A DNA stretch of 32,030 nucleotides from a virus (lineage: Duplodnaviria; Heunggongvirae; Uroviricota; Caudoviricetes), in the IMG/VR virus record IMGVR_UViG_2778261510_000008; one strand, given 5' to 3'. The notes under the pieces were generated by a model. It was given only the letters and a program-made list of their open reading frames with translations. It ran no database searches and was not told the origin of the DNA. Shown here piece after piece: positions 1-23,140 of this stretch. Within the stretch, counting starts at the first letter, position 1; every line of letters starts with the position of its first letter. The translations under genes were made by a program, and so were the position numbers.

Positions 1-318
1 ATGAAAAAGATAGCTGCTATATCATTAATTAGTATTTTTATTATGTCTGGTTGTGCTGTGCATAATGATGAGACAAGTATCGGTAAATTTGGTCTTGCAT
101 ATAAAAGTAATATTCAGCGTAAACTCGATAACCAATACTACACCGAAGCCGAAGCTTCTTTAGCCAGGGGTAGAATATCTGGTGCAGAAAATATAGTAAA
201 AAATGATGCAACTCATTTCTGTGTTACTCAGGGCAAAAAAATGCAAATAGTTGAGCTGAAGACAGAAGGTGTAGGATTACATGGTGTCGCTCGTCTGACA
301 TTCAAATGTGGAGAGTGA
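1..318 (+). CDS. yegR: Small host lipoprotein (signal peptide with lipobox MSGC); yegR-like by position next to the cyaR/yegQ locus
   Basis: 105-aa ORF with N-terminal hydrophobic segment and L-x-G-C lipobox; lies outside the prophage left end; identity recalled from synteny, not searched. Confidence 0.5.
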   Translation: MKKIAAISLISIFIMSGCAVHNDETSIGKFGLAYKSNIQRKLDNQYYTEAEASLARGRISGAENIVKNDATHFCVTQGKKMQIVELKTEGVGLHGVARLTFKCGE

Positions 319-477
319 GAATATTTTTTGGTAAGCGTCAAATATGCGCGTTCTGGCTGTGCGTAGCCGGAACCTGTGGGAGCACGATGCCGATAAGTGA
401 AAGGCATCGTGCTATGAAGGAGGATTCTATCGATGTGGTCAATGGAAGACGGTTACCAGAGATAGGGCTTATGCATA

Positions 478-504
478 AAAAAATAAGCCCGTGTAAGGGA
501 GATT
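478..504. repeat. attL core: 27-bp direct repeat aaaaaataagcccgtgtaagggagatt shared with attR
   Basis: Identical 27-mer at 478..504 and 30498..30524 bracketing the phage gene set; matches the recalled P2 att core. Confidence 0.85.
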
Positions 505-583
505 TAGGGTGTCACCAGTAGGGGCTTTCAACGGTACAATGCGGGTTTGAGCGGCATAAATTACCACTGAAAGCCCTTAAACG

Positions 584-1597
584 TTACTCTACTGTGGACA
601 CTATGTGGACACTCTCGGCCTCAGTACCACCTCTTAGCGGATTAAGAGAAATGGCGTCCTGAAGGTACTCTGGCGCAAAATGAGCGTAAACCATAGTTTG
701 CTCAATCCGCGTGTGACCTAGTATCCGTTGTAGCGTGATAATACTTCCTCCATTAATCATGAAATGAGTGGCAAAGCTGTGCCTTAGTGCATGTGTGGCT
801 TGCCCCATTGGCAAATCCGGTTTTATTGCTTTCATTGTTCGTCTGAAGCGAGGGTAATCAGCATCAGGGAATAAAAAACCTCGTTTGTTATCCGCGATCA
901 TTTTGGCAACAGCCTCTGAGATCGGGACGGTGCGTGGTTTGTTTGTTTTCGTTTTAACAAACGTGACGCGGTTATGGATGATATTTTCTGCTTTCAAACG
1001 AGCTGCTTCTCCCCAACGTGCTCCAGTACTCAGGCAAAGAATCGCAATCTTTTTGTTGTCGCCGTCAAGAGCAGCAAGCAGTAAGGCAATTTCTTCCTGC
1101 GTGAGATAGCCTGTGTCTGGTTTTTCCTCCTTAAGCCTTTTTGTCCCTCTGATAGGGTGCTCACCAAAGAATAACTCCGCTTCAATCAGGGCTGTAAACA
1201 TGCCGCTAATACATGTTAAATCACGATTGATACTCGAAGGTTTAATACCCTGACTTCTTCGGGTGGCGCAGTACTGGCTGATAAGCGATTTCGTAATTTG
1301 AAATGCGCATGGGTCATTCGTTATTTTTGTGAAGATTTCAATTTTTCCAAGATTAGATTTCCCATGCTCTTCGTGTTTACCCTTTAAATCCCACCAGATC
1401 TGTGTCAGCTCCGACAGACGTCGCTTGTCTGTTGGTTTTGATAGCCATTCTTTATTGTGGTGGTTGTACAACGTGTATTTCTCGAAAGCGACAGCTTCGC
1501 TTTTCTTATCAAACTTCCTACGGATGCGTTTTCCATTACGTCCAGTAGGGCGGATGTCCACTTCATATCGACCATCATCGAGTTTTTTGATTGCCAT
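584..1597 (-). CDS. int: Tyrosine integrase, P2 Int-like
   Basis: 337-aa ORF next to att core; C-terminal H-x-x-R...Y catalytic region (HALRHSFATH ... TMVYAHF); SD ggaggg upstream of ATG. Confidence 0.9.
   Translation of the reverse strand: MAIKKLDDGRYEVDIRPTGRNGKRIRRKFDKKSEAVAFEKYTLYNHHNKEWLSKPTDKRRLSELTQIWWDLKGKHEEHGKSNLGKIEIFTKITNDPCAFQITKSLISQYCATRRSQGIKPSSINRDLTCISGMFTALIEAELFFGEHPIRGTKRLKEEKPDTGYLTQEEIALLLAALDGDNKKIAILCLSTGARWGEAARLKAENIIHNRVTFVKTKTNKPRTVPISEAVAKMIADNKRGFLFPDADYPRFRRTMKAIKPDLPMGQATHALRHSFATHFMINGGSIITLQRILGHTRIEQTMVYAHFAPEYLQDAISLNPLRGGTEAESVHIVSTVE
593..612. promoter_or_regulatory. Tandem direct repeats TGTGGACAC (593..601 and 604..612), candidate Int arm-type binding sites in the P' arm
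   Basis: Two perfect 9-mers with 11-bp period, inside the 3' end of int and ~90 bp from the att core; related TGTGG(T/A)C pair at 30449..30467 on the other arm. Confidence 0.5.
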
Positions 1598-1712
1598 CAG
1601 AAAACCCTCCGAGTGGTATGTTTTTTTGCGACTACTAATCGCTTTTTTCGTGGTGGCTGAAATTTAGCCACCAATAGTAGGCACTTGTGATGAATATATT
1701 CACGATGAATTG

Positions 1713-2012
1713 TTAACCAGTCTTTTGACCGGAGTGGGGCGACGTTGTTTCGTTTTGCCCAAAGTGTGCGAGAGCGGGCGCAATTTGCCCGGACTCAGGA
1801 GCGATCTGATTGGTCATGAACCATAAAGTGTATTTGGTGAATTGTGGGGTCTGCAGGATGTTCATCATGACATCTGTTGGAGGTGTTGAACGACCACTTT
1901 CATAGTAACTCAGCGTGCCATACGGAACCCCTGTTAAATCAGCAAGTTGTTGTCTGCTCAAATACTCTGATTTTCGCATTAAGACTATCTTCTCGCTTAT
2001 CGTGTTTGACAT
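1713..2012 (-). CDS. C: Immunity repressor, P2 C-like
   Basis: 99-aa ORF with HTH segment (LSRQQLADLTGVPYGTLSYYE), divergent from cox, same size and position as P2 C. Confidence 0.85.
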   Translation of the reverse strand: MSNTISEKIVLMRKSEYLSRQQLADLTGVPYGTLSYYESGRSTPPTDVMMNILQTPQFTKYTLWFMTNQIAPESGQIAPALAHFGQNETTSPHSGQKTG

Positions 2013-2112
2013 GGTGTTTAGATCTCAATAGTATTTAGTTTAGATGTAGATTGTTTAGTGCTTGGATGTGGGCACTAAAAGGCATTATAAGACATTAAAC
2101 GCAATTCATGAG
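2006..2112. promoter_or_regulatory. Lysogeny/lysis switch: candidate Pe (-35 TTGACA 2006..2011, -10 TAGTAT 2029..2034, + strand), operator direct repeats GTTTAGAT (2016..2023, 2038..2045; third GTTTAG at 2053), candidate Pc -10 TATAAT on - strand (2084..2089)
   Basis: Hexamers with 17-bp spacing; operator half-sites as direct repeats flanking the Pe -10, the arrangement known for P2 C repressor; face-to-face promoters give overlapping transcripts. Confidence 0.6.
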
Positions 2113-2126
2113 GGCTAGAGGACGAC

Positions 2127-2402
2127 ATGAGCAAGCAAGTAACACTCATGACTGATGCGATTCCTTATCAGGAGTTCGCAAAACTAATAGGAAAATCGAC
2201 AGGAGCGGTTCGTCGGATGATTGATAAAGGAAAGCTGCCTGTAATTGATATGACCGATCCACAATCAGCTTCAGGTCGTGCAGGTGAATATTGGGTATAC
2301 CTTCCGGCATGGAATAACGGACTAAAACTGGCTTATGAAAGCCGCCCTAAAGAGATTCGTGACGGCTGGTTGATGTGGTTAGGTCTCGGTGAACCACGTT
2401 AA
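2127..2402 (+). CDS. cox: Cox-like excisionase / Pc repressor
   Basis: 91-aa ORF, first gene of the early operon, divergent from C; size and position as P2 Cox. Confidence 0.8.
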   Translation: MSKQVTLMTDAIPYQEFAKLIGKSTGAVRRMIDKGKLPVIDMTDPQSASGRAGEYWVYLPAWNNGLKLAYESRPKEIRDGWLMWLGLGEPR

Positions 2403-2412
2403 GGAGAACCGT

Positions 2413-2583
2413 ATGAATGAGCCTCGTTGTATTGCTCAGTTACTGCGTAACGAAAGCCCCAGGGCGATTGACTTCACCATCACCCACGGTAAGGGGCGTA
2501 AGGGAATCATTATCCGCACCAAAAAACAGAGTCCGTTAAAAAAGGCTCTGACCTTTCTGAAAAGCCGGAGGGTATGGAAATGA
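2413..2583 (+). CDS. Small early-operon hypothetical protein (P2 orf78 position)
   Basis: ORF 2389..2583; ATG at 2413 preceded by AAGGAG at good spacing; basic small protein. Confidence 0.45.
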   Translation: MNEPRCIAQLLRNESPRAIDFTITHGKGRKGIIIRTKKQSPLKKALTFLKSRRVWK

Positions 2584-3080
2584 CAGTGATGACGCTCAAT
2601 CTCGTTGAAAAACAGCCAGCAGCTATGCGCCGGATAATTGGTAAGCATCTTGCCGTTCCTCGCTGGCAGGATACATGTGATTATTATAATCAGATGATGG
2701 AGCGCGAACGGTTAACGGTTTGCTTTCATGCGCAGTTAAAACAGCGTCACGCAACGATGCGTTTTGAAGAAATGAACGACATCGAACGTGAACGGCTGGT
2801 TTGTGCAATTGATGAATTGCGTGGGGCATTCTCAAAACGCCGTCAGGTTGGCGCAAGTGAGTATGCATATATTAGTTTTTTAACAGTCAGTCAGCGTCGT
2901 ACTTTATTTATGCATGCCGGATTGACTGAAAAAGAATTCAACCAGCCATACTGGCGAATTAATGAAGAATCATGTTACTGGCGTGATGCTTTATTCCGTG
3001 CATTACGTGAATTATTCAGTCTGTTTGAGTATGCACCGACAATTCTGACGTCGGTAAAACCAGAGCAATATCTGCATTAA
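2580..3080 (+). CDS. B: Replication protein B-like (helicase-loader role in P2)
   Basis: 166-aa ORF between cox and A; size, position and recalled N-terminus MTVMTLNLVEKQ as P2 B. Confidence 0.75.
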   Translation: MTVMTLNLVEKQPAAMRRIIGKHLAVPRWQDTCDYYNQMMERERLTVCFHAQLKQRHATMRFEEMNDIERERLVCAIDELRGAFSKRRQVGASEYAYISFLTVSQRRTLFMHAGLTEKEFNQPYWRINEESCYWRDALFRALRELFSLFEYAPTILTSVKPEQYLH

Positions 3081-3143
3081 GTAATTAACCAGAGTTTTTA
3101 ACGCACTTAATTGTGCGGGGCTTCTTTTTGCCTGGAGAAAGTC

Positions 3144-3368
3144 ATGCATACAGTTTCTGAAAATCAGTGCGGTAAATACGCATTACTGCTGCAACAGGCC
3201 AGAACCGAAGCACAGGCCGACGCAGCGACGCGCTTTTCTTCTCATCTTGACGCCATGATTCGCCACATCACAAAGGCGGAGTTATCCCGCGTGGAGATAG
3301 TCGAGCTGCTCAGTCAGGAGTCGGAAAAATTTCACAATATCGGATTGTCTCGCGGGGAGGTGCTTTGA
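3144..3368 (+). CDS. Small early hypothetical protein (P2 orf80 position); start ambiguous (3111 or 3144)
   Basis: ORF 3111..3368; ATG at 3144 has GGAG upstream. Confidence 0.45.
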
Positions 3369-3670
3369 TGTCCTGTTCTCGTTCAGTTGTATTACTGAAT
3401 AACGCCTTAAAAATCGCCGTTATGAAAAATGGCGATTTATCTCTTATTCAACTTGGTCTTGATAAAGAAAAACGCGAAATAACTGAGTCTGTTATCGCGA
3501 TTTATCAGAACGAATTAAATCTCCTGTCTGATGTGGTCAATTTACTTGTTAAACGCGCTGTATTTCACAAGCAAATCTCCTCCGTGGACGAACTGACGAA
3601 ATTAACGACAGAAATTGCCAGCTATTGCGCTGATGAATTTAAAAAACTTAACGACAAAAGGAGCTGGTAA
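3368..3670 (+). CDS. Small early hypothetical protein (P2 orf81 position)
   Basis: ORF overlapping neighbours by a few nt (coupled early operon); ATG at 3368 after ggggagg. Confidence 0.5.
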   Translation: MSCSRSVVLLNNALKIAVMKNGDLSLIQLGLDKEKREITESVIAIYQNELNLLSDVVNLLVKRAVFHKQISSVDELTKLTTEIASYCADEFKKLNDKRSW

Positions 3671-3894
3671 TGCCGGACAACGTAGATTTTATTCAGGAAC
3701 AACAGGCTGAATTACTGGAGCGCCAGATTAACGCGGCAAGGGTAAAGCATTGCGGTGTTTCTGCGCTGGTTTGCGAAGAGTGTGACGCGCCAATACCTGC
3801 TGCCCGTCGTGCGGCTTATCCGTCAGCCACGCGTTGTGTTTCCTGCCAGTCAGTCTTTGAAGCAAAAAACAAACATTACCGGAGAACGGCATGA
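3670..3894 (+). CDS. DksA/TraR-family C4 zinc-finger protein (P2 orf82 position)
   Basis: 74 aa with C-x-x-C ... C-x-x-C (CEECDAP ... CVSCQ) at the C-terminus, typical of TraR/DksA zinc fingers. Confidence 0.6.
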   Translation: MPDNVDFIQEQQAELLERQINAARVKHCGVSALVCEECDAPIPAARRAAYPSATRCVSCQSVFEAKNKHYRRTA

Positions 3895-4166
3895 GTATTC
3901 GTATTGAAATTGGCGAACGTTATGTCGTTACCAGTGACAGCTTTCAGTTTATTCTCCACGAGAAAAAGAGAGCGGAAAGCGGTAAAAACGCCGGTCAGGA
4001 ATGGCTGGCGGTGGTTGGTTATTACCCGAAATTAAGCCAGCTCGTTTCCGGCCTGATGCATCACGATATTCTGACCGGAAGCGCAAAGTCTTTTGCTGAT
4101 TTAAACGCGCAGGTTGAGCAACTCAGCAAGCGTTGTTCAGAGGCTTTTGGCTCATATGGCCGTTAA
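3891..4166 (+). CDS. Small early hypothetical protein (P2 orf83 position)
   Basis: 91-aa ORF immediately upstream of and overlapping A. Confidence 0.5.
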   Translation: MSIRIEIGERYVVTSDSFQFILHEKKRAESGKNAGQEWLAVVGYYPKLSQLVSGLMHHDILTGSAKSFADLNAQVEQLSKRCSEAFGSYGR

Positions 4167-6420
4167 AGCCTCCGGGCGTTTTGTCCCTCCGTCAGCATTT
4201 GCCGCAGGCACCGGTAAGACGTTTACCGGTGCTTATGCATGGAACGCGCCACGCGAGGCTGTCGGGCGCGAAAGACCCCTTACACGTGACGAGATGCGTC
4301 AGGTGCAAGGTGTTTTATCCACGATTAATCGCCTGCCTTACTTTTTGCGCTCGCTGTTTACTTCACGCTATGACTACATCCGGCGCAATAAAAGCCCGGT
4401 GCACGGGTTTTATTTCCTCACATCCACTTTTCAGCGTCGTTTATGGCCGCGCATTGAGCGCGTTAATCAGCGCCATGAAATGAACACCGACGCGTCGTTG
4501 CTGTTTCTGGCAGAGCGTGACCACTATGCGCGCCTGCCTGGAATGAATGACAAGGAGCTGAAAAAGTTTGCCGCCCGTATCTCATCGCAGCTTTTCATAA
4601 TGTATGAGGAACTCTGCGATGCCTGGGTGGATGCGCATGGCGAGAAAGAATCGCTGTTTACGGATGAGGCGCAGGCTCACCTGTATGGTCATGTTGCTGG
4701 CGCTGCACGTGCTTTCAATATTTCCCCGCTCTACTGGAAAAAATACCGTAAAGGGCAGATGACCACGAGGCAGGCATATTCTGCCATTGCCCGTCTGTTT
4801 AACGATGAATGGTGGACTCATCAGCTTAAAGGCCAGCGTATGCGCTGGCATGAGGCGTTACTGATTGCTGTCGGGGAGGTCAATAAAGACCGTTCTCCTT
4901 ATGCCAGTAAACATGCCATTCGTGATGTGCGTGCGCGCCGCCAGGCAAATCTGGAATTTCTTAAATCGTGTGACCTTGAAAACAGGGAAACCGGCGAGCG
5001 CATCGACCTTATCAGTAAGGTGATGGGCAGTATTTCTAATCCAGAAATTCGCCGGATGGAGCTGATGAACACCATCGCCGGTATTGAGCGTTACGCTGCC
5101 GCAGAGGGTGATGTGGGGATGTTTATCACGCTGACCGCGCCGTCAAAGTATCACCCAACACGTCAGGTCAGAAAAGGCGAAAGCAAAACCGTCCAGCTAA
5201 ATCACGGCTGGAATGATGAGGCATTTAATCCAAAGGATGCGCAGCGTTATCTCTGCCGTATCTGGAGCCTGATGCGCACGGCATTCAAGGATAATGATTT
5301 ACAGGCCTACGGTTTGCGTGTTGTTGAACCACACCACGACGGAACGCCGCACTGGCATATGATGCTTTTTTGTAATCCACGCCAGCGTAACCAGATTATT
5401 GAAATCATGCGTCGCTATGCGCTCAAAGAGGATGGCGACGAAAGAGGAGCCGCGAGAAACCGTTTTCAGGCAAAACACCTTAACCGGGGCGGTGCTGCGG
5501 GATATATCGCGAAATACATCTCAAAAAACATCGACGGCTATGCACTGGATGGTCAGCTCGATAATGATACCGGTAGGCCGCTGAAAGACACAGCTGCGGC
5601 TGTTACCGCATGGGCGTCAACGTGGCGCATTCCGCAATTTAAAACGGTTGGTCTGCCGACAATGGGGGCTTACCGTGAACTACGCAAATTGCCTCGTGGC
5701 GTCAGCATTGCTGATGAGTTTGACGAGCGCGTCGAGGCTGCACGCGCCGCTGCAGACAGTGGTGATTTTGCGTTGTATATCAGCGCGCAGGGCGGGGCAA
5801 ATGTCCCGCGCGATTGTCAGACTGTCAGGGTCGCCCGTAGCCCGTCGGATGACGTTAACGAGTACGAGGAAGAAGTCGAGAGAGTGGTCGGCATTTACGC
5901 GCCGCATCTCGGCGCGCGTCATATTCATATCACCAGAACGACGGACTGGCGCATTGTTCCGAAAGTGCCGGTCGTTGAGCCTTTGACTTTAAAAAGCGGC
6001 ATCGCCGCGCCTCGGAGTCCTGTCAATAACTGTGGAAAGCTCACCGGTGGTGATCCTTCGTTACCGGCTCCCACACCTTCTGAGCACGCCGCAGCAGTGC
6101 TAAATCTGGTTGATGACGGTGTTATCGAATGGAATGACCCGGAGGTCGTGAGGACGCTCAGGGGCGCATTAAAACACGGGCTGAGAACGCCAAGTCATCA
6201 GCAAAGAAACGGAAGCCCATTAAAACCGCATGAAATAGCGCCATCGGCCAGACTGACCCGGTCGGAACGAATGCAAATTACCCGTATCCGCGTTGACCTT
6301 GCTCAGAACGGTATCAGGCCTCAGCGATGGGAGCTTGAGGCGCTGGCGCGTGGCGCGACCGTAAATTACGACGGGAAAAAATTTAGGTATTTTATAGTTA
6401 ATGAGTGGCCTATTTTCTAG
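4156..6420 (+). CDS. A: Replication initiation protein A (rolling-circle nickase), P2 gpA-like
   Basis: ~754-aa ORF; ATG at 4156 (MAVKASGRF...) inside the longer TTG-initiated ORF 4114..6420; size and position as P2 A. Confidence 0.9.
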   Translation: MAVKASGRFVPPSAFAAGTGKTFTGAYAWNAPREAVGRERPLTRDEMRQVQGVLSTINRLPYFLRSLFTSRYDYIRRNKSPVHGFYFLTSTFQRRLWPRIERVNQRHEMNTDASLLFLAERDHYARLPGMNDKELKKFAARISSQLFIMYEELCDAWVDAHGEKESLFTDEAQAHLYGHVAGAARAFNISPLYWKKYRKGQMTTRQAYSAIARLFNDEWWTHQLKGQRMRWHEALLIAVGEVNKDRSPYASKHAIRDVRARRQANLEFLKSCDLENRETGERIDLISKVMGSISNPEIRRMELMNTIAGIERYAAAEGDVGMFITLTAPSKYHPTRQVRKGESKTVQLNHGWNDEAFNPKDAQRYLCRIWSLMRTAFKDNDLQAYGLRVVEPHHDGTPHWHMMLFCNPRQRNQIIEIMRRYALKEDGDERGAARNRFQAKHLNRGGAAGYIAKYISKNIDGYALDGQLDNDTGRPLKDTAAAVTAWASTWRIPQFKTVGLPTMGAYRELRKLPRGVSIADEFDERVEAARAAADSGDFALYISAQGGANVPRDCQTVRVARSPSDDVNEYEEEVERVVGIYAPHLGARHIHITRTTDWRIVPKVPVVEPLTLKSGIAAPRSPVNNCGKLTGGDPSLPAPTPSEHAAAVLNLVDDGVIEWNDPEVVRTLRGALKHGLRTPSHQQRNGSPLKPHEIAPSARLTRSERMQITRIRVDLAQNGIRPQRWELEALARGATVNYDGKKFRYFIVNEWPIF

Positions 6421-6464
6421 GCTACCATTAATGTCGGGTTTAGATAATGCAATAATTTATTGGC

Positions 6465-6500
6465 AAGGTCTTCAGATTTAACTAAAGACCTTGTGTTTTA
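6465..6500. terminator. Candidate bidirectional hairpin between convergent genes A and the island gene
   Basis: 8-bp inverted repeat aaggtctt / aagacctt (6465..6472, 6485..6492) followed by T-rich gtgttttaattgtttt. Confidence 0.4.
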
Positions 6501-6540
6501 ATTGTTTTCTAGTCTTTTATATGAGCGTAAGTCTATGGGG

Positions 6541-8412
6541 TTACTGTGGTGGAGTCCATATTTTTAATGCGATATTTTTATATGTTTCCCCGCGTGCTGT
6601 AATAGCATTGGCGTTGAATTCAACATATTCTTCAAGATTGATATCGTTATTTGCAGATAAGAATCTTACCAGCTCAGGGTTGTTTTGATAAAAGTTTGCG
6701 CATAATGTCTGGCAAAGAACGTTTTCACCGCTATATACTGTTTTCTTTTCTGAGTACAACTTATCATTTAATGATCTGTTTCTTGAACGGGGAAGCAATA
6801 TCAAACCACCAATCAAGTTTCTCTTCTGCTTGTATTCAGTGTCAGATGAAAAACCGAAGGCTGATGAAGGCATGGTTGTATCATCAATTACTTCGCGAAG
6901 AACATGTTCTATATCAAAAGTTTTCATACCTTTGTCGCGTTGCATATAAACATCAAACCCTACTTTGTTTGTTAGGTTTATCTCGTTTTCAATGTAAGAG
7001 GCGATACGAGCCAGAATATAAAGCATATCTGATCTGGTTTTATTCTCGTACGCCATTTCTGGTATTCTATTAAGTAATGTATAATGCTTGTCCCATTCGT
7101 TTTGGACATAGCTTAACAATGCTGGATAATCTTTCCCTCTAACATCTTTAGCTAAGCTGAATGCAATATCTTTTAAATTGTCATAAGTGTTTGCTTTCTT
7201 CGATACGATTCGACTGGTGAGAATTAGATCAATATACTTAGATATTATTTGGATTTTTTTCTTACGAACATCACGGGTATCTGATAAATCTACAGAAGAT
7301 AGAATTATCATGGTTTGAAAGTTGAATTTTCTAATTCCATTATAGAAAACGTCAGGGTAATCAGTAGTCAGATTTTTCTCAGCATTGGCAATTGTCAAGC
7401 ATAAATTTGCATACTCGGGTATATCTGTTTTTGCAAAGTTATAAAAATCATCGGAAGTAATCAGACCGATATCATGGGTTTTATCTTCAAACCACCGATG
7501 ATAAGAATCATTGATTTTATCAAAATCACCAGGTGCATCGCCTTTATTTTTACCTCTAATAGTGTTTGCCCATTTAGCGCGTAATAAATTCCTGATAAAT
7601 AGAGAATCTCCCTCTGGATCTTTGTCTCTAAGTTTAGACATGGTTTTTACCCATACCTGATGGCATTCTTGACTATCTTCGGGGCTAGTGATTTTTGACA
7701 GAATAAAACCTTTTAATAGTTCAATTGCACCGAGTCTCAAGCCACGGTCATTCATTGTGACAAATACTCTATGCGCTTCTGACTCGCTTGAGACGGATAT
7801 ATCTATTAAAAGAACTTTTTCCATTAAATAATCAATAAAGAAAGAAACTTTTTCTTTTATTGTTGGATCCAAAGCATCCTCAATGGATTTTATTGCCTCA
7901 ATTATTCTTTTATCGCTATCACTAAGATTAGTAATGCTATCTACATCATCTAGTGCGTCTGCAAGACATTTTGCGTTGTCAGTATATTTTGTGAATATTT
8001 CTTTTCTAACTTCGGAAAATTCAATATTGAAATCGCGTTCCCCATAAGAAACACTCCCAATAAAATTTTCTAAAGCCAAAGTGTCTGGAATGTGGTTATC
8101 CTTGATATATCTTTCAAAAAAAACAAGAAGAATAAATATAGACGTGATTCGTTGTTGTCCATCAATCAACGGGCGCTTACCGTTGGTTTCAACCGCCGTA
8201 ATGATAGAACCAAGAAAGTATGGAGGATAAGATGATACATCGCGTCTACCATGAGTAGACTCATAACTCAGTAAGAAAGCATTTTGAATGTCATTTAACA
8301 TTTCAAGAAAATGCCTGCTTTCCCATTTATAATCCCTCTGAAAATATGGTAGTGAGTACTTGCTTTGAAAGCAGGTTTTTAAACTTAGAGTCGATGGGGT
8401 TATATACGCCAT
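6541..8412 (-). CDS. DUF262 (ParB-like, DGQQR motif) + DUF1524-like (His-Me finger) protein; candidate GmrSD-like type IV restriction / anti-phage defence protein in the P2 tin/old hotspot
   Basis: Long ORF 6541..8466; N-terminal motifs YFQRDYKW and LIDGQQRITS; C-terminal FDIEHVL ... NLIGGLILLPRSRNRSLNDK; AT-rich codon usage unlike the phage backbone; ATG at 8412 has AAGGA SD, ATG at 8466 has none. Confidence 0.6.
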   Translation of the reverse strand: MAYITPSTLSLKTCFQSKYSLPYFQRDYKWESRHFLEMLNDIQNAFLLSYESTHGRRDVSSYPPYFLGSIITAVETNGKRPLIDGQQRITSIFILLVFFERYIKDNHIPDTLALENFIGSVSYGERDFNIEFSEVRKEIFTKYTDNAKCLADALDDVDSITNLSDSDKRIIEAIKSIEDALDPTIKEKVSFFIDYLMEKVLLIDISVSSESEAHRVFVTMNDRGLRLGAIELLKGFILSKITSPEDSQECHQVWVKTMSKLRDKDPEGDSLFIRNLLRAKWANTIRGKNKGDAPGDFDKINDSYHRWFEDKTHDIGLITSDDFYNFAKTDIPEYANLCLTIANAEKNLTTDYPDVFYNGIRKFNFQTMIILSSVDLSDTRDVRKKKIQIISKYIDLILTSRIVSKKANTYDNLKDIAFSLAKDVRGKDYPALLSYVQNEWDKHYTLLNRIPEMAYENKTRSDMLYILARIASYIENEINLTNKVGFDVYMQRDKGMKTFDIEHVLREVIDDTTMPSSAFGFSSDTEYKQKRNLIGGLILLPRSRNRSLNDKLYSEKKTVYSGENVLCQTLCANFYQNNPELVRFLSANNDINLEEYVEFNANAITARGETYKNIALKIWTPPQ

Positions 8413-8571
8413 TAATACATCCTTTTGTCTGTAAAGAGCTTCTGTGAGAAGCGCATTATACTGCATTAAGCTGCATTAGTTTTCTACATGTTAATTGATG
8501 TCTACAAAGTAGATTTGACAAGTTTTTGAGGTGGGCGTGCACTTGCATTCAAACCGACCCATGAAGCGGGC

Positions 8572-8590
8572 GGGCGAGGCGGGGAAAGCA
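8572..8590. other. cos site: 19-nt sequence GGCGAGGCGGGGAAAGCAC matching the recalled P2 cohesive end
   Basis: Exact 19-mer located just past Q, where P2 cos lies; surrounded by GC/GT-rich non-coding DNA. Confidence 0.7.
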
Positions 8591-8733
8591 CTGCGCGCTG
8601 GCGGTGGTGCTGATTTTATTTTTTTAGCGTCTCAGCGCGTCGTGATGGCGTTTAGATTGTGCGCCGGGGCGTTAGTGTGTCTGCGGGGTGTTTTGTGCGG
8701 TGGTGAGCGTGTGAGGGCGTGATGACGGGGTGT

Positions 8734-8755
8734 AAAAAAGCCGCCCGCAGGCGGC
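8734..8755 (-). terminator. Rho-independent terminator downstream of Q (minus strand)
   Basis: GCCGCC-cgca-GGCGGC hairpin followed on the minus strand by a 6-T run (A-run 8734..8739 on plus). Confidence 0.6.
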
Positions 8756-8760
8756 GATGT

Positions 8761-9795
8761 TCAGCCGTTGTCAGTGTCCAGTGAGTAGTTTTTAAAGCGG
8801 ATGACCTCCTGACCGAGCCAGCCGTTTATCTCACGGATCCTGTCCTGTAACGGGATAAGCTCATTGCGGACAAAGACCTTTGCCACTTTCTCAATATCAC
8901 CCAGCGACCCGACGTTCTCCGGCTTGCCGCCCATCAACTGAAAGGGGATGCGGTGCGCGTCCAGCAGGTCTGCGGCACTGGCTTTTTTGATATTAAAAAA
9001 ATCGTCCTTCGTCGCCACTTCACTGAGCGGGATAATTTTAATGCCGTCGGCTTTTCCCTGTGGGGCATAGAGAAACAGGTTTTTAAAGTTGTTGCGGCCT
9101 TTCGACTTCACCATGTTTTCGCGAAGCATTTCGATATCGTTGCGATCCTGCACGGCATCAGTGACGTACATGATGTATCCGGCATGTGCGCCGTTTTCGT
9201 AATACTTGCGGCGGAACAGCGTGGCCGACTCATTCAGCCAGGCAGAGTTAAGGGCGCTGAGATATTCCGGCAGGCCGTACAGCTCCTGATTAATATCCGG
9301 CTCCAGCAGGTGAAACACGGAGCCGGGCGTGAAAGGTGTCGGCTCGTTGAAGGACGGCACCCACCAGTAAACATCCTCCTCCACCCCACGGCGGGTATAT
9401 TTTGCCGGTGAGGTTTCCAGTCTGATGACCTTACCGGTAGTGCTGTAACGCTTTTCCAGAAACGCATTACCGAACACCAGAAAATCCAGCACAAAGCGGC
9501 TGAAATCCTGCTGAGAAAGCCACGGATGCGGGATAAATGTCGAGGCCAGAATATTGCGTTTGACGTAAATTGGTGAGCTGTGATGCACGGCAGCACGCAG
9601 GCTTTTTGCCAGACCAGTAAAGCTGACCGGTGGCTCATACCATCTGCCGTTACTGATGCACTCGACGTAATCCAGAATGTCACGGCGGTCGAGTACCGGC
9701 ACTGGCTCACCAAAGGTGAATGCCTCCATTTTCGGGGCGCTGGCGGTCATTTTTTTTGCCGCAGGTTGCTGTGTTTTCCCTTTTTTCTTGCTCAT
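8761..9795 (-). CDS. Q: Portal protein, P2 gpQ-like
   Basis: 344-aa ORF, ATGA overlap with P stop, adjacent to cos; size and order as P2 Q. Confidence 0.9.
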   Translation of the reverse strand: MSKKKGKTQQPAAKKMTASAPKMEAFTFGEPVPVLDRRDILDYVECISNGRWYEPPVSFTGLAKSLRAAVHHSSPIYVKRNILASTFIPHPWLSQQDFSRFVLDFLVFGNAFLEKRYSTTGKVIRLETSPAKYTRRGVEEDVYWWVPSFNEPTPFTPGSVFHLLEPDINQELYGLPEYLSALNSAWLNESATLFRRKYYENGAHAGYIMYVTDAVQDRNDIEMLRENMVKSKGRNNFKNLFLYAPQGKADGIKIIPLSEVATKDDFFNIKKASAADLLDAHRIPFQLMGGKPENVGSLGDIEKVAKVFVRNELIPLQDRIREINGWLGQEVIRFKNYSLDTDNG

Positions 9796-11567
9796 CAGTA
9801 AAACTCCAGAATGGTGGATGTCAGCGGGGTGCTGATACCGGCGGTGAGTGGCTCATTTAACAGGGCGTGCATGGTCGCCCAGGCGAGGTCGGCGTGGCTG
9901 GCTTCCTCGCTGCGGCTAGCCTCATACGTGGCGCTGCGTCCGCTGCTGGTCATGGTCTTGCGGATAGCCATAAACGAGCTGGTGATGTCGGTGGCGCTGA
10001 CGTCATATTCCAGACAGCCACGGCGGATAACGTCTTTGGCCTTGAGCACCATTGCGGTTTTCATTTCCGGCGTGTAGCGGATATCGCGCGCGGCAGGATA
10101 GAACGAGCGCACGAGCTGGAACACGCCGACACCGAGGCCGGTGGCATCAATACCGATGTATTCTACGTTGTATTTTTCGGTGAGTTTGCGGATGGATTCA
10201 GCCTGAGTGGCAAAGTCCATGCCTTTCCACTGGTGACGCTCAAGTATTCTGAATTTGCCACCGGCCACCACCGGCGGTGCCAGCACCACGCATCCGGCGC
10301 TGTCGCCACGGTGTGACGGGTCGTAACCAATCCATACCGGGCGGGAGCCGAACGGATTGGCGGCAAACGGCGCATAGTCTTCCCATTCTTCCAGCGTGTC
10401 GACCATGCAGCGTTGCAGCTCCTCAAACGGGAACACCGACGCCTTGTCGTCAACAAATTCACACATGAACAGGTTTTTAAAATCGTCGGCGCTGTTTTCG
10501 CGTTTGAGCTGCTCAATGTCGAACAGCGTGCAGCCGCCTTTCAGGGCATCCTCAATGGTGACAATCTGCCGCCACTGGCCGTCCGCACAGAGAAGCCCAC
10601 CGGCAAGGGCGTTATGACTGACGTCGATTTCCACGCGTTCGGCGGCGCTGGCGCGTCCCCGGTTGAACAGTTCACCCGACCAGAACGGGTAGGCGTCGTG
10701 CGCCAGCGTGGACGGGGTGGAGAAATAGGTCGAACGCAGGTGACTCTGTGAGGCCATACCTGATGCCACCTTACGCAGTACCTGAAAATTCGGGATCCAG
10801 AAAATCTCGTCGACGTACAGGTCGCCGTTATGGCTCTGTGCGGTGTTGGAGTTGGTGCCGAGAAAAATCAGTTTTGCGCCGTTATTGCCCAGGACAATCG
10901 GGTCACCGGTCAGGTCAACGTCAACCAGACGGGCAAAGGCGATGATGTATTCGCGGAACACATACGCCTGCGTTTTACTGGCCGACAGAAAAATCTGGTT
11001 ATGGCCGGTTTTCAGGGCGCGCAGCAGCGCCTCGCGGGAAAAATAAAACGTCGCGCCAATCTGGCGGGATTTCAGGATATCGCGGATGCGGTGCTCAAGC
11101 CCGGCGCGATACCAGTGCAACTGATAGTCGAAAGACTGCTCAAAGAAAATCTGCTCCAGCTTTTCGATGGCCTCGTCACTGAAAAAATTCTTTTTCGGTT
11201 TGCGCCGCCCGCCTTTGTTGCGGTTAGCGACGTTCGGATTAAGGTCTGCCTCGTTGCCGGTCTGACTGTAACGGTTTACCCGTGCCAGTCGTTCAATCTG
11301 GCGTCCCAGCAGGTCAATTTCCTTGAAGTCACCGCCGGTTTTCTGCGGTTTGATGATGAGCTGGGTCAGCCGCGCTTCCAGACTCATTTCGACACGGCTG
11401 ATGGGGGCAACACTGTCCCAGCCGTCGCGCTGTTTCCAGCTCTGCACCGTCGGGCGTTTCATCTGCAACATGGCGGCAATCTGCGGCACGGAAAACCCCT
11501 GCCAGTACAGCAGCGCCGCCTGACGACGCGGGTCGTGTAAAAGAGTGGTGTCTGTGGTGATGGTCAT
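9795..11567 (-). CDS. P: Terminase large (ATPase) subunit, P2 gpP-like
   Basis: 590 aa from ATG at 11567 (MTITTDTT...); divergent from O as in P2. Confidence 0.9.
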   Translation of the reverse strand: MTITTDTTLLHDPRRQAALLYWQGFSVPQIAAMLQMKRPTVQSWKQRDGWDSVAPISRVEMSLEARLTQLIIKPQKTGGDFKEIDLLGRQIERLARVNRYSQTGNEADLNPNVANRNKGGRRKPKKNFFSDEAIEKLEQIFFEQSFDYQLHWYRAGLEHRIRDILKSRQIGATFYFSREALLRALKTGHNQIFLSASKTQAYVFREYIIAFARLVDVDLTGDPIVLGNNGAKLIFLGTNSNTAQSHNGDLYVDEIFWIPNFQVLRKVASGMASQSHLRSTYFSTPSTLAHDAYPFWSGELFNRGRASAAERVEIDVSHNALAGGLLCADGQWRQIVTIEDALKGGCTLFDIEQLKRENSADDFKNLFMCEFVDDKASVFPFEELQRCMVDTLEEWEDYAPFAANPFGSRPVWIGYDPSHRGDSAGCVVLAPPVVAGGKFRILERHQWKGMDFATQAESIRKLTEKYNVEYIGIDATGLGVGVFQLVRSFYPAARDIRYTPEMKTAMVLKAKDVIRRGCLEYDVSATDITSSFMAIRKTMTSSGRSATYEASRSEEASHADLAWATMHALLNEPLTAGISTPLTSTILEFY

Positions 11568-20504: not shown

Positions 20505-21784
20505 CAGTGAAATACTACGCCATTCTGACTAATCAGGGCGCAGCACGGCTGGCTAACGCGACGATGCTTGGCAGTAAGCTGAATCTGACGCAAATGGCCG
20601 TTGGTGATGCGAATGGTGTCTTGCCGACACCAGACCCGGCACAGACAAAACTGATTAACCAGAAACGCATCGCGCCGCTGAATCTTCTGAGTGTTGACCC
20701 GAACAACCAGAGCCAGATTATTGCGGAGCAAATTATCCCTGAGAACGAGGGTGGATTCTGGATCCGTGAGATTGGGCTTTATGATGATGAAGGCGTACTC
20801 ATTGCGGTGGCGAACTGCCCGGAAACGTACAAACCGCAGTTACAGGAAGGCAGCGGTCGTACCCAGACTATCCGCATGATTCTGGTTGTCACGAATACCG
20901 AAGCTATTACGCTGAAAATCGACCCGTCGGTGGTACTGGCGACCCGTAAATACGTGGATGATGAAGTCCTGGAATTAAGGCTGTATGTGGATGACCAGAT
21001 GAGAAACCACATTGCCGCACAGGATCCTCATACCCAGTATGCACAGAAACATAATCCGACATTTACCGGAGAACCAAAAGCGCCGACTCCTGATGCAGGA
21101 AATAACACCACGCGGATTGCGACCACTGCGTTTGTACAGGCTGCTATTACCGCTCTGATTAATGGTGCGCCTGCCACGCTGGACACACTGAAAGAAATTG
21201 CCGCAGCCATTAACAATGACCCGAAATTCAGCACCACCATTAACAATGCGCTGGCAGGTAAACAACCGCTGGACAATACGCTGACTCATTTGAGTGGAAA
21301 GGATGTTGCCGGTCTTCTCGCATACCTTGGTTTGGGAGAAGGTGCTCCAACTATTGGCGTTCCGTTCTTCTGGCCCTCCGCTGCAATGCCAAATACTGTA
21401 ATCGACAGCTGGTCCGGTATGGTGTTTTTGAAGTTCAACGGGGCGAAATTTTCTGCCTCTGATTACCCTGTGCTGGCGAAAGTGTTTCCTTCGCTGGTAT
21501 TACCTGAAGCCCGCGGTGATTTCATTCGTATCTGGGATGACGGGCGAGGTGCAGATGGTGGTCGCGAATTATTAAGCTGGCAGGAAGCTACAAACTTTTC
21601 TCAGTTTGCCGGGAATATAGGCGGAGGTGCGGGACACGCAATTAACTTTCATGATGGCATCGCCGGAAATCAGCCAGGATTTTCACGATTTAATTTCACC
21701 AGTAACTCTGTGGGTGATGGTGTGAATTTTGTTGCTGTCAGACCGCGAAATATTGCATTTAACTTTCTGGTGAGGGCTAAATAA
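20501..21784 (+). CDS. H: Tail fibre protein: P2 gpH-like constant N-terminal part fused to a variable C-terminal part lying inside the invertible segment
   Basis: 427 aa; N-terminus MTVKYYAILTNQGAARLANA... as recalled for P2 H; crossover site lies within the coding sequence at 21315..21340. Confidence 0.85.
   Translation: MTVKYYAILTNQGAARLANATMLGSKLNLTQMAVGDANGVLPTPDPAQTKLINQKRIAPLNLLSVDPNNQSQIIAEQIIPENEGGFWIREIGLYDDEGVLIAVANCPETYKPQLQEGSGRTQTIRMILVVTNTEAITLKIDPSVVLATRKYVDDEVLELRLYVDDQMRNHIAAQDPHTQYAQKHNPTFTGEPKAPTPDAGNNTTRIATTAFVQAAITALINGAPATLDTLKEIAAAINNDPKFSTTINNALAGKQPLDNTLTHLSGKDVAGLLAYLGLGEGAPTIGVPFFWPSAAMPNTVIDSWSGMVFLKFNGAKFSASDYPVLAKVFPSLVLPEARGDFIRIWDDGRGADGGRELLSWQEATNFSQFAGNIGGGAGHAINFHDGIAGNQPGFSRFNFTSNSVGDGVNFVAVRPRNIAFNFLVRAK
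21315..21340. repeat. Left recombination site (gix/cix/hix-like 26 bp) inside the tail fibre gene
   Basis: ttctcgcataccttggtttgggagaa is an imperfect inverted copy of 23061..23086; homology continues into ggtgct on both sides and preserves the reading frame. Confidence 0.65.
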
Positions 21785-22377
21785 TGAAACCTGTTTTTGA
21801 TGAAAATGGGCTGGCTACAGTGCCGGGCGATATGCGTTGTTTTTATTATGATGCTGAAACATCTGAGTATACGGGCTGGTCTGATGAATATATTAATAAT
21901 GGCGTAAGTATGCCCGCCTGTTCCACTGGTATTGACCCGGGCGAAAACATTCCGGGGAAAGTGGCAGTATTTACGGGTAAGGGATGGAGCCATGAAGAAG
22001 ACCATCGCAATGAGACTGTTTACTCAACAGAAAATGGCGCAGCTGTTACAGTGGATTATATCGGTGCCATCAAAAACGGTTATGTCACGCTTTCACCGTT
22101 AACGACATATGATAAATGGGATGGTGAGAAATGGGTGACAGATACTGAGGCACAGCATAACGCCGCAGTAGAAGCAGCAGAAGCACAGCGCCAGTCACTG
22201 ATTGATGCAGCAATGGCTTCCATTAGTCTGATTCAGCTGAAATTACAGGCCGGACGGAAACTGACTCAGGCAGAAACAACCCGACTTAACGCCGTGCTGG
22301 ATTACATTGACGCGGTGACGGCAACAGATACCAGCACCGCGCCGGATGTCATCTGGCCTGAACTGCCGGAGGCGTAG
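21784..22377 (+). CDS. Tail fibre assembly chaperone (gpG/U-like), current orientation
   Basis: 197-aa ORF right after H; C-terminal TSTAPD-x-x-WP motif shared with the convergent ORF. Confidence 0.75.
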
Positions 22378-22777
22378 GCCATTCAATATCGGGTGCTGTT
22401 GAAGTATCAACACGCATCAGCAGCACACGGTATTTCTTCCATTCGGTGAGAGTTGAAGTTTCTTCATCAGTTGCGATATCAGCATCAACAGCATCCTGAC
22501 GCCAGGATATTTCACTGTCAGCTTTTTCCCGTAATTGGGATTTTTTAACTTCAGCAATAGCTATTAATTCCTTTTTGGTCGGCTGAGGAATATCTATCAG
22601 TGCTGGTTTTCCATTCAGTGTTCCAATCTGTTTTCCTGGTGGAATATCCATAAATAACTTTTTATGTTCTTCCTCACTGACTATTACACCATCATCAGGC
22701 CACAGACCTGATGCCTCAAATTTTTCTTTCTCCGATATGGGGAAAAAGCCATTTGCTTTAGCGCTCCATACGTACAT
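22349..22777 (-). CDS. Alternative tail fibre assembly chaperone (U'-like), convergent
   Basis: 142-aa ORF ending in [15 protein letters not shown], like the + strand chaperone; sits inside the invertible segment. Confidence 0.7.
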
Positions 22778-22778
22778 A

Positions 22779-23086
22779 TCAATACCCCACCGCTATAATG
22801 TCCACATTAAATCCCCCGGGACCTGCCTGCCAGATGCTGGCCCCTGTTAATGATTTTGTTTGATGAACAACCGCCACATTTGCTGGCGATAGTGTTTCAG
22901 TTGTTACAGTACCGATATCATTCCAGTTAATTGAGATGGAATAGTTCGTTGTTGTAAACGACCGGGGGAAAGTTATGTGTCTTGCATTGGTGCCAACAGG
23001 AAATCCAAGATAAACACGCTGAATTATCATTCCTCCAGGTAACATAACCCAGTTAGCACCTTCTCCAAAACCAACGTTTATGAAAA
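22779..23086 (-). CDS. Silent alternative tail fibre C-terminal cassette (Sv'-like); expressed only after inversion fuses it to the H constant part
   Basis: Reading frame open from the right crossover site; encodes [14 protein letters not shown]... whose first residues parallel GLGEGA in H; no own start or promoter. Confidence 0.6.
23061..23086. repeat. Right recombination site (gix/cix/hix-like 26 bp)
   Basis: ttctccaaaaccaacgtttatgaaaa; its reverse complement ttttcataaacgttggttttggagaa aligns with 21315..21340. Confidence 0.65.
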
Positions 23087-23140
23087 TGCAGAAATAACGA
23101 GCAAATGGCATCATTCCTGCTTTTGTCAGAGGGATCCACT

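Follow-up and report, generated by a model that had tools for sequence, protein, structure and literature searches.

A rare AT-rich cargo gene in the A-to-cos hotspot of a P2-like prophage encodes a predicted GmrSD-family protein, a probable modification-dependent restriction enzyme

A documented hotspot of P2-like phages lies between the replication gene A and cos, and in reference P2 it is occupied by old and tin (Rousset et al., 2022; PMC9122126). Partition systems were reported at this hotspot in about a quarter of P2-like phages, and five of the eight additional hotspot systems cloned in the same study gave no defence phenotype (PMC9122126). In the accessible portions of its supplement, cargos with DUF262 and DUF1524 domains at the gpA-gpQ hotspot are catalogued in Table S5, where the accession WP_001695619 was not found among the entries, and the term DUF262 was not found in Table S2, which contains the systems tested for defence (PMC9122126).

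Several described enzymes share this domain pair. GmrSD and BrxU carry out NTP-dependent cleavage of DNA containing modified cytosine. Variants of GmrSD form a main front against T-even phages, and a separate injected inhibitor exists for each of the known variants. DndI is held back by phosphorothioate (PT) on self DNA and nicks unmodified DNA. HEC-06 (Hma-embedded candidate 6) is a solo GmrSD-like defence nuclease that works alone, requires its DGQQR and EH residues and was reported to block T4 (Payne et al., 2024, bioRxiv 10.1101/2024.01.29.577857). A Bacteroides homologue of HEC-06 is modification-dependent and gave protection against T-even phages relative to the unmodified T4-GT7.

The DNA analysed here (the window) is a stretch of 32,030 nt from a virus of the Caudoviricetes (IMG/VR record IMGVR_UViG_2778261510_000008). 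Its A-to-cos interval is bounded on the left by the conserved gene A, encoding the replication endonuclease (4156-6420, forward strand), and on the right by the conserved portal gene Q (8761-9795, reverse strand), with the 19-nt cohesive-end sequence of cos (GGCGAGGCGGGGAAAGCAC, 8573-8591) as the landmark of the right-hand boundary. Linear phage records start or stop at cos (H27 begins at query position 2574 and H29 ends at 2592). Alignment of the interval with other P2-like phages revealed conserved flanks and differing inserts. Homology to the phages vB_YpM_22 and vB_YpM_50 ended at 6409/6410 and that to pro483 at 6289, and homology to all three restarted at 8536-8545. These breaks and the G+C profile delimit a variable segment of about 2.13 kb with 35% G+C (6410-8544), which includes the final ~10 nt of gene A and leaves a gap of ~30 nt between the end of the cargo and cos. 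Other P2-like phages carry unrelated cargos at the same slot, namely Fic/VbhT, DUF3850 and DUF4238. The sequence-only reading had placed the variable P2 hotspot between A and cos, in agreement with the published description (Rousset et al., 2022) and with these breakpoints.

The same reading had described the interval as AT-rich by eye, and computation bore this out. The G+C content of 6421-8571 was 35.2%, against 53.4% in the remainder of the window, 53.2% in A and 52.7% in Q. This was the lowest value among all 2,151-nt windows (mean 52.5%, standard deviation 5.5%), and outside the island only positions 1-500 gave a 500-nt window below 42% G+C. Codon usage followed the same pattern, with a GC3 of 0.298 in the cargo gene vs 0.544 in A and 0.643 in Q, so that the composition is strongly unlike that of the backbone. 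The low GC and GC3, together with the swapped inserts between conserved flanks, mark the island as cargo exchanged horizontally at the known gpA-cos/gpQ diversity hotspot, which is the origin that had been supposed for it.

The interval contains one large ORF on the reverse strand (6541-8466, 641 aa), again as had been noticed from the sequence, and its sole gene is GmrSD-like, so that tin and old are both missing here. Homology to Old (ATPase plus TOPRIM) or Tin was not detected: the domain search gave only GmrSD_N and GmrSD_C, and the PADLOC match lists for the cargo protein contained neither an Old-type nor a Tin profile. An Rfam scan of 6200-8900 gave no RNA family at E <= 1. Three smaller ORFs were considered as parts of the cargo and judged unlikely. 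Two are antisense to the gene (6491-6688, which has no PHROG match, and 6651-7073), and the third (8531-8722) spans cos, matches a PHROG of unknown function and sits in the flank conserved across P2-like phages.

The cargo gene itself was assigned to 6541-8412 on the reverse strand and encodes 623 aa, in which a helical linker joins a predicted DUF262 NTPase domain to a predicted DUF1524 His-Me nuclease domain. The outer start at 8466, giving the 641-aa ORF and used in one RefSeq record, was rejected because homologues are 621-624 aa long, the ATG at 8412 is preceded by AAGGA at a spacing of 7 nt, and a TATAAT hexamer is located downstream of the outer ATG. The presumed Shine-Dalgarno sequence AAGGA (8420-8424) and the TATAAT, a perfect -10 hexamer with a weak -35 (8455-8460), were read directly from the reverse strand. 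A scan with the promoter consensus detected no site upstream of the cargo gene, and its sites were fewer than those in a shuffled sequence; it missed the TATAAT because of the poor -35. It is this hexamer that suggests a promoter of the gene's own. Between the convergent genes A and cargo, an inverted repeat with the core AAGGTCTT / AAGACCTT and a subsequent T-rich run (6451-6506, forward strand) form the probable terminator of the early transcript. The RefSeq protein WP_001695619.1 in L001 corresponds to the same 623-aa CDS with one base difference (7891), and P0001 is 100% identical. Comparison with a Klebsiella orthologue yielded a pN/pS of 0.11, given in place of dS because synonymous sites were saturated (pS 0.81). 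The cargo is thus a functional gene under purifying selection.

Searches with the encoded protein gave Pfam matches to GmrSD_N (PF03235; 109 bits against a gathering cut-off of 33.2, E 4.4e-31, residues 35-255 of the 641-aa ORF) and to GmrSD_C (PF07510; 31.8 bits against a cut-off of 23, profile positions 10-133 of 138), the latter match being modest (E 1.5e-7). The NCBIfam search with the protein gave no match. The catalytic motifs checked in the two domains were all invariant in 40 homologues. In DUF262 these are the QR motif (motif i, Q25-R26, 8335-8340), the DGQQR NTPase motif (D84-R88, 8149-8163), which is essential in HEC-06, DndI and TgvAB, and the FxxxN motif (motif iii, F217VTMN221, 7750-7764). 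In the nuclease domain they are the acidic residue and catalytic histidine E502-H503 (6904-6909) and the helix asparagine N545 of the HNH motif (6778-6780), all on the reverse strand. E502/H503 correspond, by motif position and not by alignment, to E471/H472 in the EHICP motif of HEC-06, both of which are essential for defence there; N545 aligns with N541 of DndI, whose mutation abolished nicking and defence. In an AlphaFold2 model (pLDDT 87) the region formed two beta strands (499-503 and 537-541) and a helix (542-548). H503 closes the first strand and N545 lies in the helix, which corresponds to the H...N...H/N arrangement of a His-Me finger on its beta-beta-alpha fold. N532 and N564 are also present in this region, the GN usual before beta-2 is replaced by GG, and the loop of the beta-hairpin carries an insertion of 33 residues. 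Domain matches, motifs and model together assign the cargo protein to the GmrSD family of single-chain DUF262 plus DUF1524 proteins sensu Machnicka et al. (2015).

Comparison of the model with the PDB by Foldseek gave ten matches at E <= 0.001, all of them DndI, BrxU or SspE (3e-12 to 7e-4), and the next match had an E of 0.22. Global TM-scores were low (0.27-0.42), which may reflect different relative positions of the domains, and identity with the nearest characterised proteins was 12-15% in the structural alignments. The closest solved structure, by sequence as well as by fold, was DndI (9JFL; sequence E 5e-10, profile 1.8e-14, fold E 2.9e-12), in which DGQQR occupies nearly the same position (D83-R87). 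BrxU (7P9K) was the second-best fold match and had no detectable sequence match in the PDB search; structures and profiles of SspE (6JIV, 7DRI) matched as well. The logic of DndI is opposite to that of modified-DNA cleavage, which counts against reading the cargo protein as a modification-dependent enzyme.

These matches raise the question whether the cargo protein is a PT-sensing effector of the DndI/SspE type, nicking DNA that lacks the PT marks of the host and kept from self DNA through NTP hydrolysis that PT stimulates. Such an effector would imply a dndBCDE or sspABCD module elsewhere in the host. The residue Y25, through which DndI senses PT, does align with an invariant aromatic residue (F24) of the cargo protein, but an aromatic residue before QR is a general feature of the DUF262 motif and has no discriminating value. 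The genes for DndI and SspE lie beside the modification operons that these effectors need, whereas dnd or ssp genes were found neither within 8 kb of the gene in eight homologue contexts, several of which are temperate phages moving between hosts, nor across the 32-kb window. A solo cutter of unmarked DNA would attack both the host and its own phage. Moreover, HEC-06 profiles matched far better than SspE profiles (PADLOC best match E 8.5e-38, about 1e-37, vs 4e-12). We therefore regard PT sensing as very unlikely.

The match to HEC-06 was shared by all 40 family members examined (E down to ~2e-39), and the PADLOC type IV profile matched weakly and at the N terminus only (2.5e-6). The HEC-06 alignment covers residues ~11-280 of 623, i.e. 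DUF262 and the start of the linker (profile positions 14-275 of 558), and the HEC-06 profiles gave no significant C-terminal alignment, leaving the nuclease half uncovered. The cargo protein thus appears to be related to HEC-06 and is not a member by full-length match. The sequence-only reading had considered the island the likeliest seat of a defence function in the window, and the matches to defence-system profiles, from Pfam (GmrSD_N and GmrSD_C) and from PADLOC (HEC-06), speak in favour of this proposal.

A defence nuclease with this fold might also have a trigger unrelated to DNA modification (a phage protein, a DNA structure or replication intermediates, for example) and might then act by abortive infection. 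The specificity of the sensor is not readable from sequence, the helical linker and the hairpin insertion have no counterpart in characterised members, and DUF262 proteins occur also in the mechanistically different systems Menshen, Dazbog and PD-T4-2. Against this, every characterised single-chain protein with DUF262 and DUF1524 reads the modification state of DNA (GmrSD, BrxU, HEC-06, TgvB, SspE and DndI), and a trigger of another kind is, on balance, unlikely.

The cargo is rare. It was present in nine of 5,426 complete E. coli genomes, a set in which 1,641 genomes held the cos-Q flank, at 1,893 loci in all, and in none of 80 P2-like phage records, though both flanks matched there at 90-97%; it is accordingly no core gene of P2-like phages, as its description as laterally acquired cargo had implied. 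A tblastn search of 50,697 phage records gave no close homologue, the best match having 23% identity and lying on an unannotated faecal contig. The same cargo, with two mismatches in 2.1 kb, was found in a P2-like prophage with a different integrase and integration site, whose right flank diverges by 2.1%. In strain PEC41 an IS5 insertion lies at 8476-8479. The subfamily of 621-624 aa is widespread in Proteobacteria and was markedly AT-richer than the host in every case. In the eight contexts examined the gene was solo and had no conserved neighbour. These contexts were P2-like prophages of two hosts (E. coli and Klebsiella), a lambdoid prophage in Morganella, a prophage in Aeromonas, an island in Pseudomonas that also holds a reverse transcriptase and AbiTii, a mobile element in Burkholderia adjoining a type III RM system, and islets in Lysobacter and Dickeya. 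Neither the island nor the eight contexts contained a conserved modification partner or cognate methyltransferase, in line with a type IV enzyme.

This distribution also bears on a role outside defence, in which a ParB-like/HNH protein would serve phage partition, replication or packaging, or the gene would be selfish, decaying cargo. DUF262 has the ParB/Srx fold, and both the partition systems at this hotspot and the hotspot systems without a defence phenotype (PMC9122126) would fit such a role, as would the IS elements that disrupt or flank two of the nine E. coli copies and could mean that the gene is costly or dispensable. However, a partner parA or parS-like features were not found, and the phage life cycle can do without the gene, which is missing from >99% of P2-type loci and from each of the 80 matching phage records. 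The invariant catalytic motifs and the low pN/pS show that it is not decaying, and its contexts include prophages of unrelated types as well as non-phage islands with RM, Abi and reverse-transcriptase genes nearby. A non-defence role is therefore most improbable, and we give it the least credence of the readings considered.

The explanation that we consider probable is that the island is horizontally exchanged hotspot cargo encoding a stand-alone, modification-dependent (type IV) restriction enzyme of the GmrSD family, which excludes competitors of the prophage. By analogy with its characterised relatives, the protein would be weakly expressed in the prophage from a promoter of its own. The N-terminal DUF262 domain, of ParB/Srx fold, would bind and hydrolyse NTP through the QR, DGQQR and FxxxN motifs and act as a sensor or switch on incoming DNA with a modification that neither the host nor P2 has, the likeliest candidates being the hydroxymethyl- or glucosyl-hydroxymethyl-cytosine of T-even-type phages. 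Sensing would unlock cleavage of the modified DNA by the C-terminal DUF1524 His-Me finger (E502/H503, N545), and the lysogen would thereby be protected and prophage competitors excluded.

It is conceivable, though doubtful, that the 621-624-aa subfamily represents a distinct GmrSD-like branch with a specificity new to the family, either for a non-cytosine hypermodification, which may be a deazaguanine, a Mom-type adenine or a modified thymidine, or for a trigger that is not a modification. Such an enzyme would escape the T4 inhibitors Ip1-3 and might act on rival P2-like phages or P4 satellites. Since each known GmrSD variant has its own inhibitor, a branch borne by temperate phages is a plausible place to look for a new specificity or inhibitor pair. 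The locus extends the list of cargos known from the P2 hotspot by one that is well delimited and apparently intact, and it points to a conserved and widespread GmrSD-like branch that profile matching assigns only partly, because the HEC-06 profile covers just half of the protein. No concept is changed thereby: defence genes in prophage hotspots and DUF262/DUF1524 proteins at such sites are both established.

Compared with the old/tin locus of P2, the cargo gene occupies the same genomic slot and would have the same kind of role, that of an accessory exclusion or defence gene on a prophage, and its product is unrelated to Old and Tin. With HEC-06 it shares the single polypeptide, the DUF262 and DUF1524 domains, the DGQQR motif and the E-H nuclease dyad. 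The dyad lies in DIEHVL in the cargo protein and in EHICP in HEC-06, no common subfamily is recognisable in the linker and nuclease halves, the lengths differ (623 aa vs 558-569 for the HEC-06 profiles), and HEC-06 is found embedded in Hma systems whereas the cargo gene is solo prophage cargo. GmrSD (EcoCT596 / Eco94GmrSD) and BrxU have the same Pfam pair and the same three-part architecture; their nuclease motif contains DH (in DHIYP) where the cargo protein has EH, and BrxU, unlike the solo cargo gene, lies within BREX loci. By analogy with these two enzymes, the cargo protein is proposed to follow the same logic, an NTP-dependent cleavage of modified DNA.

The sequence-only reading had described an AT-rich island with a single reverse-strand gene at 6421-8571, between gene A and cos, and computation agrees. 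Along the sequence, sliding-window G+C falls from 0.54-0.57 within gene A to 0.33-0.37 across approximately 6400-8400 and returns to 0.50-0.58 from approximately 8500. With 35.2% G+C versus 53.4% for the remaining window, the interval departs from the backbone composition and is the lowest among all 2,151-nt windows (mean 52.5%, sd 5.5%); besides windows overlapping the island, the sole 500-nt window below 42% G+C is 1-500. Third-codon-position G+C is 0.298 in the cargo gene versus 0.544 in gene A and 0.643 in gene Q. Gene A, encoding the P2-type replication endonuclease, ends with its stop at 6420 on the left, the 19-nt P2 cohesive-end sequence GGCGAGGCGGGGAAAGCAC (cos) occupies 8573-8591, and beyond it lies the portal gene Q (8761-9795). 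The interval contains one long ORF (6541-8466, reverse strand); its remaining ORFs are short antisense or cos-spanning frames. A 63-aa ORF (8531-8722, plus strand) spans cos, whose cutting would split it. Its place is in the flank that is conserved across P2-like phages; the ORF hits PHROG 17350 (E 5e-38), a family of unknown function, and some RefSeq genomes list it as a hypothetical protein.

Two starts were considered for the cargo gene. The inner ATG at 8412 is used by RefSeq in most carriers and by essentially all homologues (621-624 aa), and AAGGA is read 7 nt upstream of it. No ribosome-binding site was found in the sequence upstream of the outer ATG at 8466, and a perfect TATAAT (8460-8455, reverse strand), a putative -10 element, lies downstream of that ATG and hence inside the longer frame. 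The outer start was therefore rejected and the coding sequence was taken as 6541-8412 (623 aa). An inverted repeat at 6451-6506, with a T-rich plus-strand run behind it, separates the convergent A and cargo genes and is a likely terminator; an Rfam search of the region returned no known RNA. Three 10-nt-periodic near-repeats (ACTAATGCAG, CTTAATGCAG and TATAATGCGC; 8480-8451, reverse strand) overlap the putative promoter, the palindrome TCTACTTTGTAGA lies farther upstream, at 8503-8515 of the coding (reverse) strand, and an imperfect 12-nt inverted repeat (8432-8458) is located in the predicted 5' leader. These elements, within 8432-8515, are possible regulatory sites.

The flanks of the island matched 80 phage records, most at 90-99% identity and nearly all named P2-type (Peduovirus) phages of Escherichia, Yersinia and Salmonella, whose coverage of a 3-kb query with the island at its centre was 29% at most. 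Pairwise BLAST with three phages placed the left breakpoint at 6409/6410, approximately 10 nt short of the A stop codon, which leaves the final codons of A within the variable part, and the right breakpoint at 8536-8545, approximately 30 nt before cos. In these phages the same slot holds a Fic/VbhT gene with a small ORF, a DUF3850 gene with a hypothetical gene, or a DUF4238 gene. The slot proposed as a variable hotspot thus carries unrelated genes in related phages, and it has been published as the gpA-gpQ diversity hotspot, which contains old and tin in the reference P2 and shows 1,650 gene arrangements across 18,150 loci (Rousset et al., 2022; PMC9122126). Table S5 of that study includes "DUF262/DUF1524" proteins at the hotspot.

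The island was found in 9 of 5,426 complete E. coli genomes, at identities of at least 99.6% and chromosomal every time. As 1,641 of these genomes carry the neighbouring cos-Q flank, at 1,893 places in all, the cargo fills approximately 0.5% of such loci and, matched in none of the 80 flank-matching records, is not a core gene of P2-like phages. A tblastn search of 50,697 phage records revealed no isolated phage genome carrying it. In L001, an E. coli carrier, the prophage lies between pflA and pflB and has an integrase module different from that of the window prophage. The two islands differ at 2 of approximately 2,130 positions versus 2.1% in the right flank, the mosaic pattern expected of cargo exchanged via flanking homology. 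Read from the outer parts of the window (1-2412 and 30669-32030), its prophage ends beside a peptidase-U32 gene, and a Klebsiella prophage with an orthologous cargo (L012) adjoins a YegS-like gene. These neighbours probably resemble the adjacent K-12 genes yegQ and yegS, which would suggest an integration region common to the two prophages.

IS elements were found at the locus in two carriers. In PEC41, an IS5 copy with a TTAG target duplication occupies 8476-8479, which puts it in the -35 region, 16 nt upstream from the putative -10 TATAAT. IS5 activates some H-NS-silenced operons, and this insertion could silence or activate the AT-rich cargo gene. In PK13 the cargo gene breaks off at window position 7650, where IS903B truncates it, and the remnant is annotated as "HNH endonuclease family protein"; to the right of the element, cos and the late genes are replaced by host polysaccharide-export genes and the remaining prophage is lost. 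The PK13 copy is a decayed prophage. Six complete E. coli chromosome records (NZ_AP045764.1, NZ_AP045771.1, NZ_CP133453.1, NZ_CM188245.1, NZ_CP116981.1 and NZ_CP074028.1) have the island at exactly 2266-4416. In the two records whose annotation was read, the annotated gene A begins at base 1 (ATG at window position 4156), with locus L017 cut at record position 66. Presumably the assemblies were rotated to the phage replication gene instead of dnaA, a start-fixing artefact which splits the prophage across the record origin. Elsewhere in the window, a tail-fibre assembly gene (21784-22377, plus strand), an inverted second assembly gene (22349-22777, minus strand), an inverted alternative fibre C-terminus (22779-23114, minus strand) and a Hin/Cin-type serine invertase (23105-23734, plus strand) form an apparent invertible tail-fibre module. 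The module has tail-fibre genes on one side and the sheath gene on the other, at what is probably the second (Z/fun) hotspot of P2, and is absent from the related L001 prophage.

The cargo protein matched the Pfam profiles GmrSD_N (PF03235, E 4e-31) and GmrSD_C (PF07510, E 1.5e-7), each above the gathering score. The search with defence profiles that the first reading had called for gave HEC-06 as the best PADLOC match (E 1e-37), together with models labelled "Orf5"; SspE and type IV REase profiles matched more weakly, at the N-terminus. HEC-06 was matched by 40 of 40 members of the family alignment, the match being limited to residues ~11-280 (profile positions 14-275 of 558). Modelling with AlphaFold2 from 40 homologues (mean pLDDT 87) predicted an alpha/beta N-terminal domain to ~240, then a long linker of helices (~244-480) and, at the C-terminus, a region with a beta-beta-alpha unit (strands 499-503 and 537-541, helix 542-548). 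In a Foldseek search of the PDB, all ten matches with E values up to 0.001 were DndI (9JFL, E 2.9e-12), BrxU (7P9K/7P9M) and SspE (6JIV, 7DRI), the next match having an E of 0.22; by sequence, DndI was detectable among solved structures, SspE marginally, and no others. Alignment of 40 sequences with 51-85% identity to the query revealed the invariant DUF262 motifs Q25R26, D84GQQR88 and F217xxxN221 as well as the invariant nuclease positions E502-H503 and N545. N545 aligns with N541 of DndI, mutation of which abolishes nicking and defence, and the E502-H503 dyad has the same motif position as E471/H472 in HEC-06, each needed for defence. The protein departs from canonical DUF1524 in having GG instead of the usual GN before strand beta-2 and a 33-residue insertion in the hairpin.

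Database searching returned 940 homologues at E ≤ 1e-5. The best 120 of these were nearly all full length and came from Enterobacterales, Aeromonas, Pseudomonas, Burkholderia, Lysobacter, acetic-acid bacteria and metagenomes. Gene contexts were read for eight homologues: the A-cos hotspot of P2-like prophages in E. coli and Klebsiella (85% aa identity), a lambdoid prophage of Morganella between dnaB and the ninB/Q region, an Aeromonas prophage, directly downstream of an H-NS-like gene and with tail-fibre genes on the other side, a Pseudomonas island with a reverse transcriptase, AbiTii and a Dam-type methylase, a Burkholderia mobile element adjoining a type III RM system, a small Lysobacter islet, and a small Dickeya islet adjoining a Fic/Phd pair. 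Neither a conserved neighbour nor dnd or ssp genes were found in these eight contexts; the protein is therefore a stand-alone unit moving between mobile elements. Comparison with the Klebsiella orthologue (pN 0.093, pS 0.81, saturated; pN/pS 0.11) indicates strong purifying selection. In seven of seven other hosts (loci L002, L004, L006, L012, L014, L015 and L016, gene at about 8001-9870) the homologue has a G+C content 11-22 points below its flanks, for example 45.5% versus 67% in Lysobacter and 43% versus 54.5% in Pseudomonas. This suggests that AT-richness is a family trait, perhaps linked to xenogeneic silencing, and not peculiar to the insertion in the window.

In characterised single-chain DUF262+DUF1524 proteins, an NTPase/sensor domain is coupled with a His-Me nuclease, and all of these proteins read the modification state of DNA. 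GmrSD cuts glucosyl-hmC DNA, BrxU cuts 5mC, 5hmC and glc-5hmC DNA, and HEC-06 acts alone and blocks T4; a Bacteroides HEC-06 homologue gives protection from T-even phages in comparison with unmodified T4-GT7, and TgvB requires its partner TgvA. SspE and DndI nick unmarked DNA and are restrained by phosphorothioate on self DNA. As its main rival reading, the cargo protein could be such a phosphorothioate-sensing effector, in line with DndI as the closest solved structure; this is very unlikely, since no modification module lies beside the gene in any of the eight contexts and a temperate phage cannot count on one in each new host. Because the gene is solo and prophage-borne, its motifs are intact and its best score is against HEC-06, the protein is probably a stand-alone, modification-dependent (type IV) restriction enzyme that would protect the lysogen, most plausibly against T-even-type phages. 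Host and P2 DNA would be spared, both being without the target modification. That the GmrSD-fold nuclease answers to another kind of trigger is unlikely, and a non-defence role for the cargo gene is most improbable.

By this analogy the protein would work like HEC-06, GmrSD and BrxU, and it shows every tested feature of the broad GmrSD (DUF262/DUF1524) family, with 12-15% identity to members with solved structures in structural alignments. It differs from HEC-06 in lacking a full-length profile match and from DndI and SspE in lacking their genetic linkage, and it is unrelated to Old and Tin; the earlier observation that neither tin nor old is present holds. The interpretation as laterally acquired cargo with a likely defence function was right, whereas its surprise was overstated: the hotspot, defence genes as its content and DUF262/DUF1524 proteins within it are already published (PMC9122126). 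The novelty is modest, and consists of a delimited instance of a widespread, uncharacterised GmrSD-like branch.
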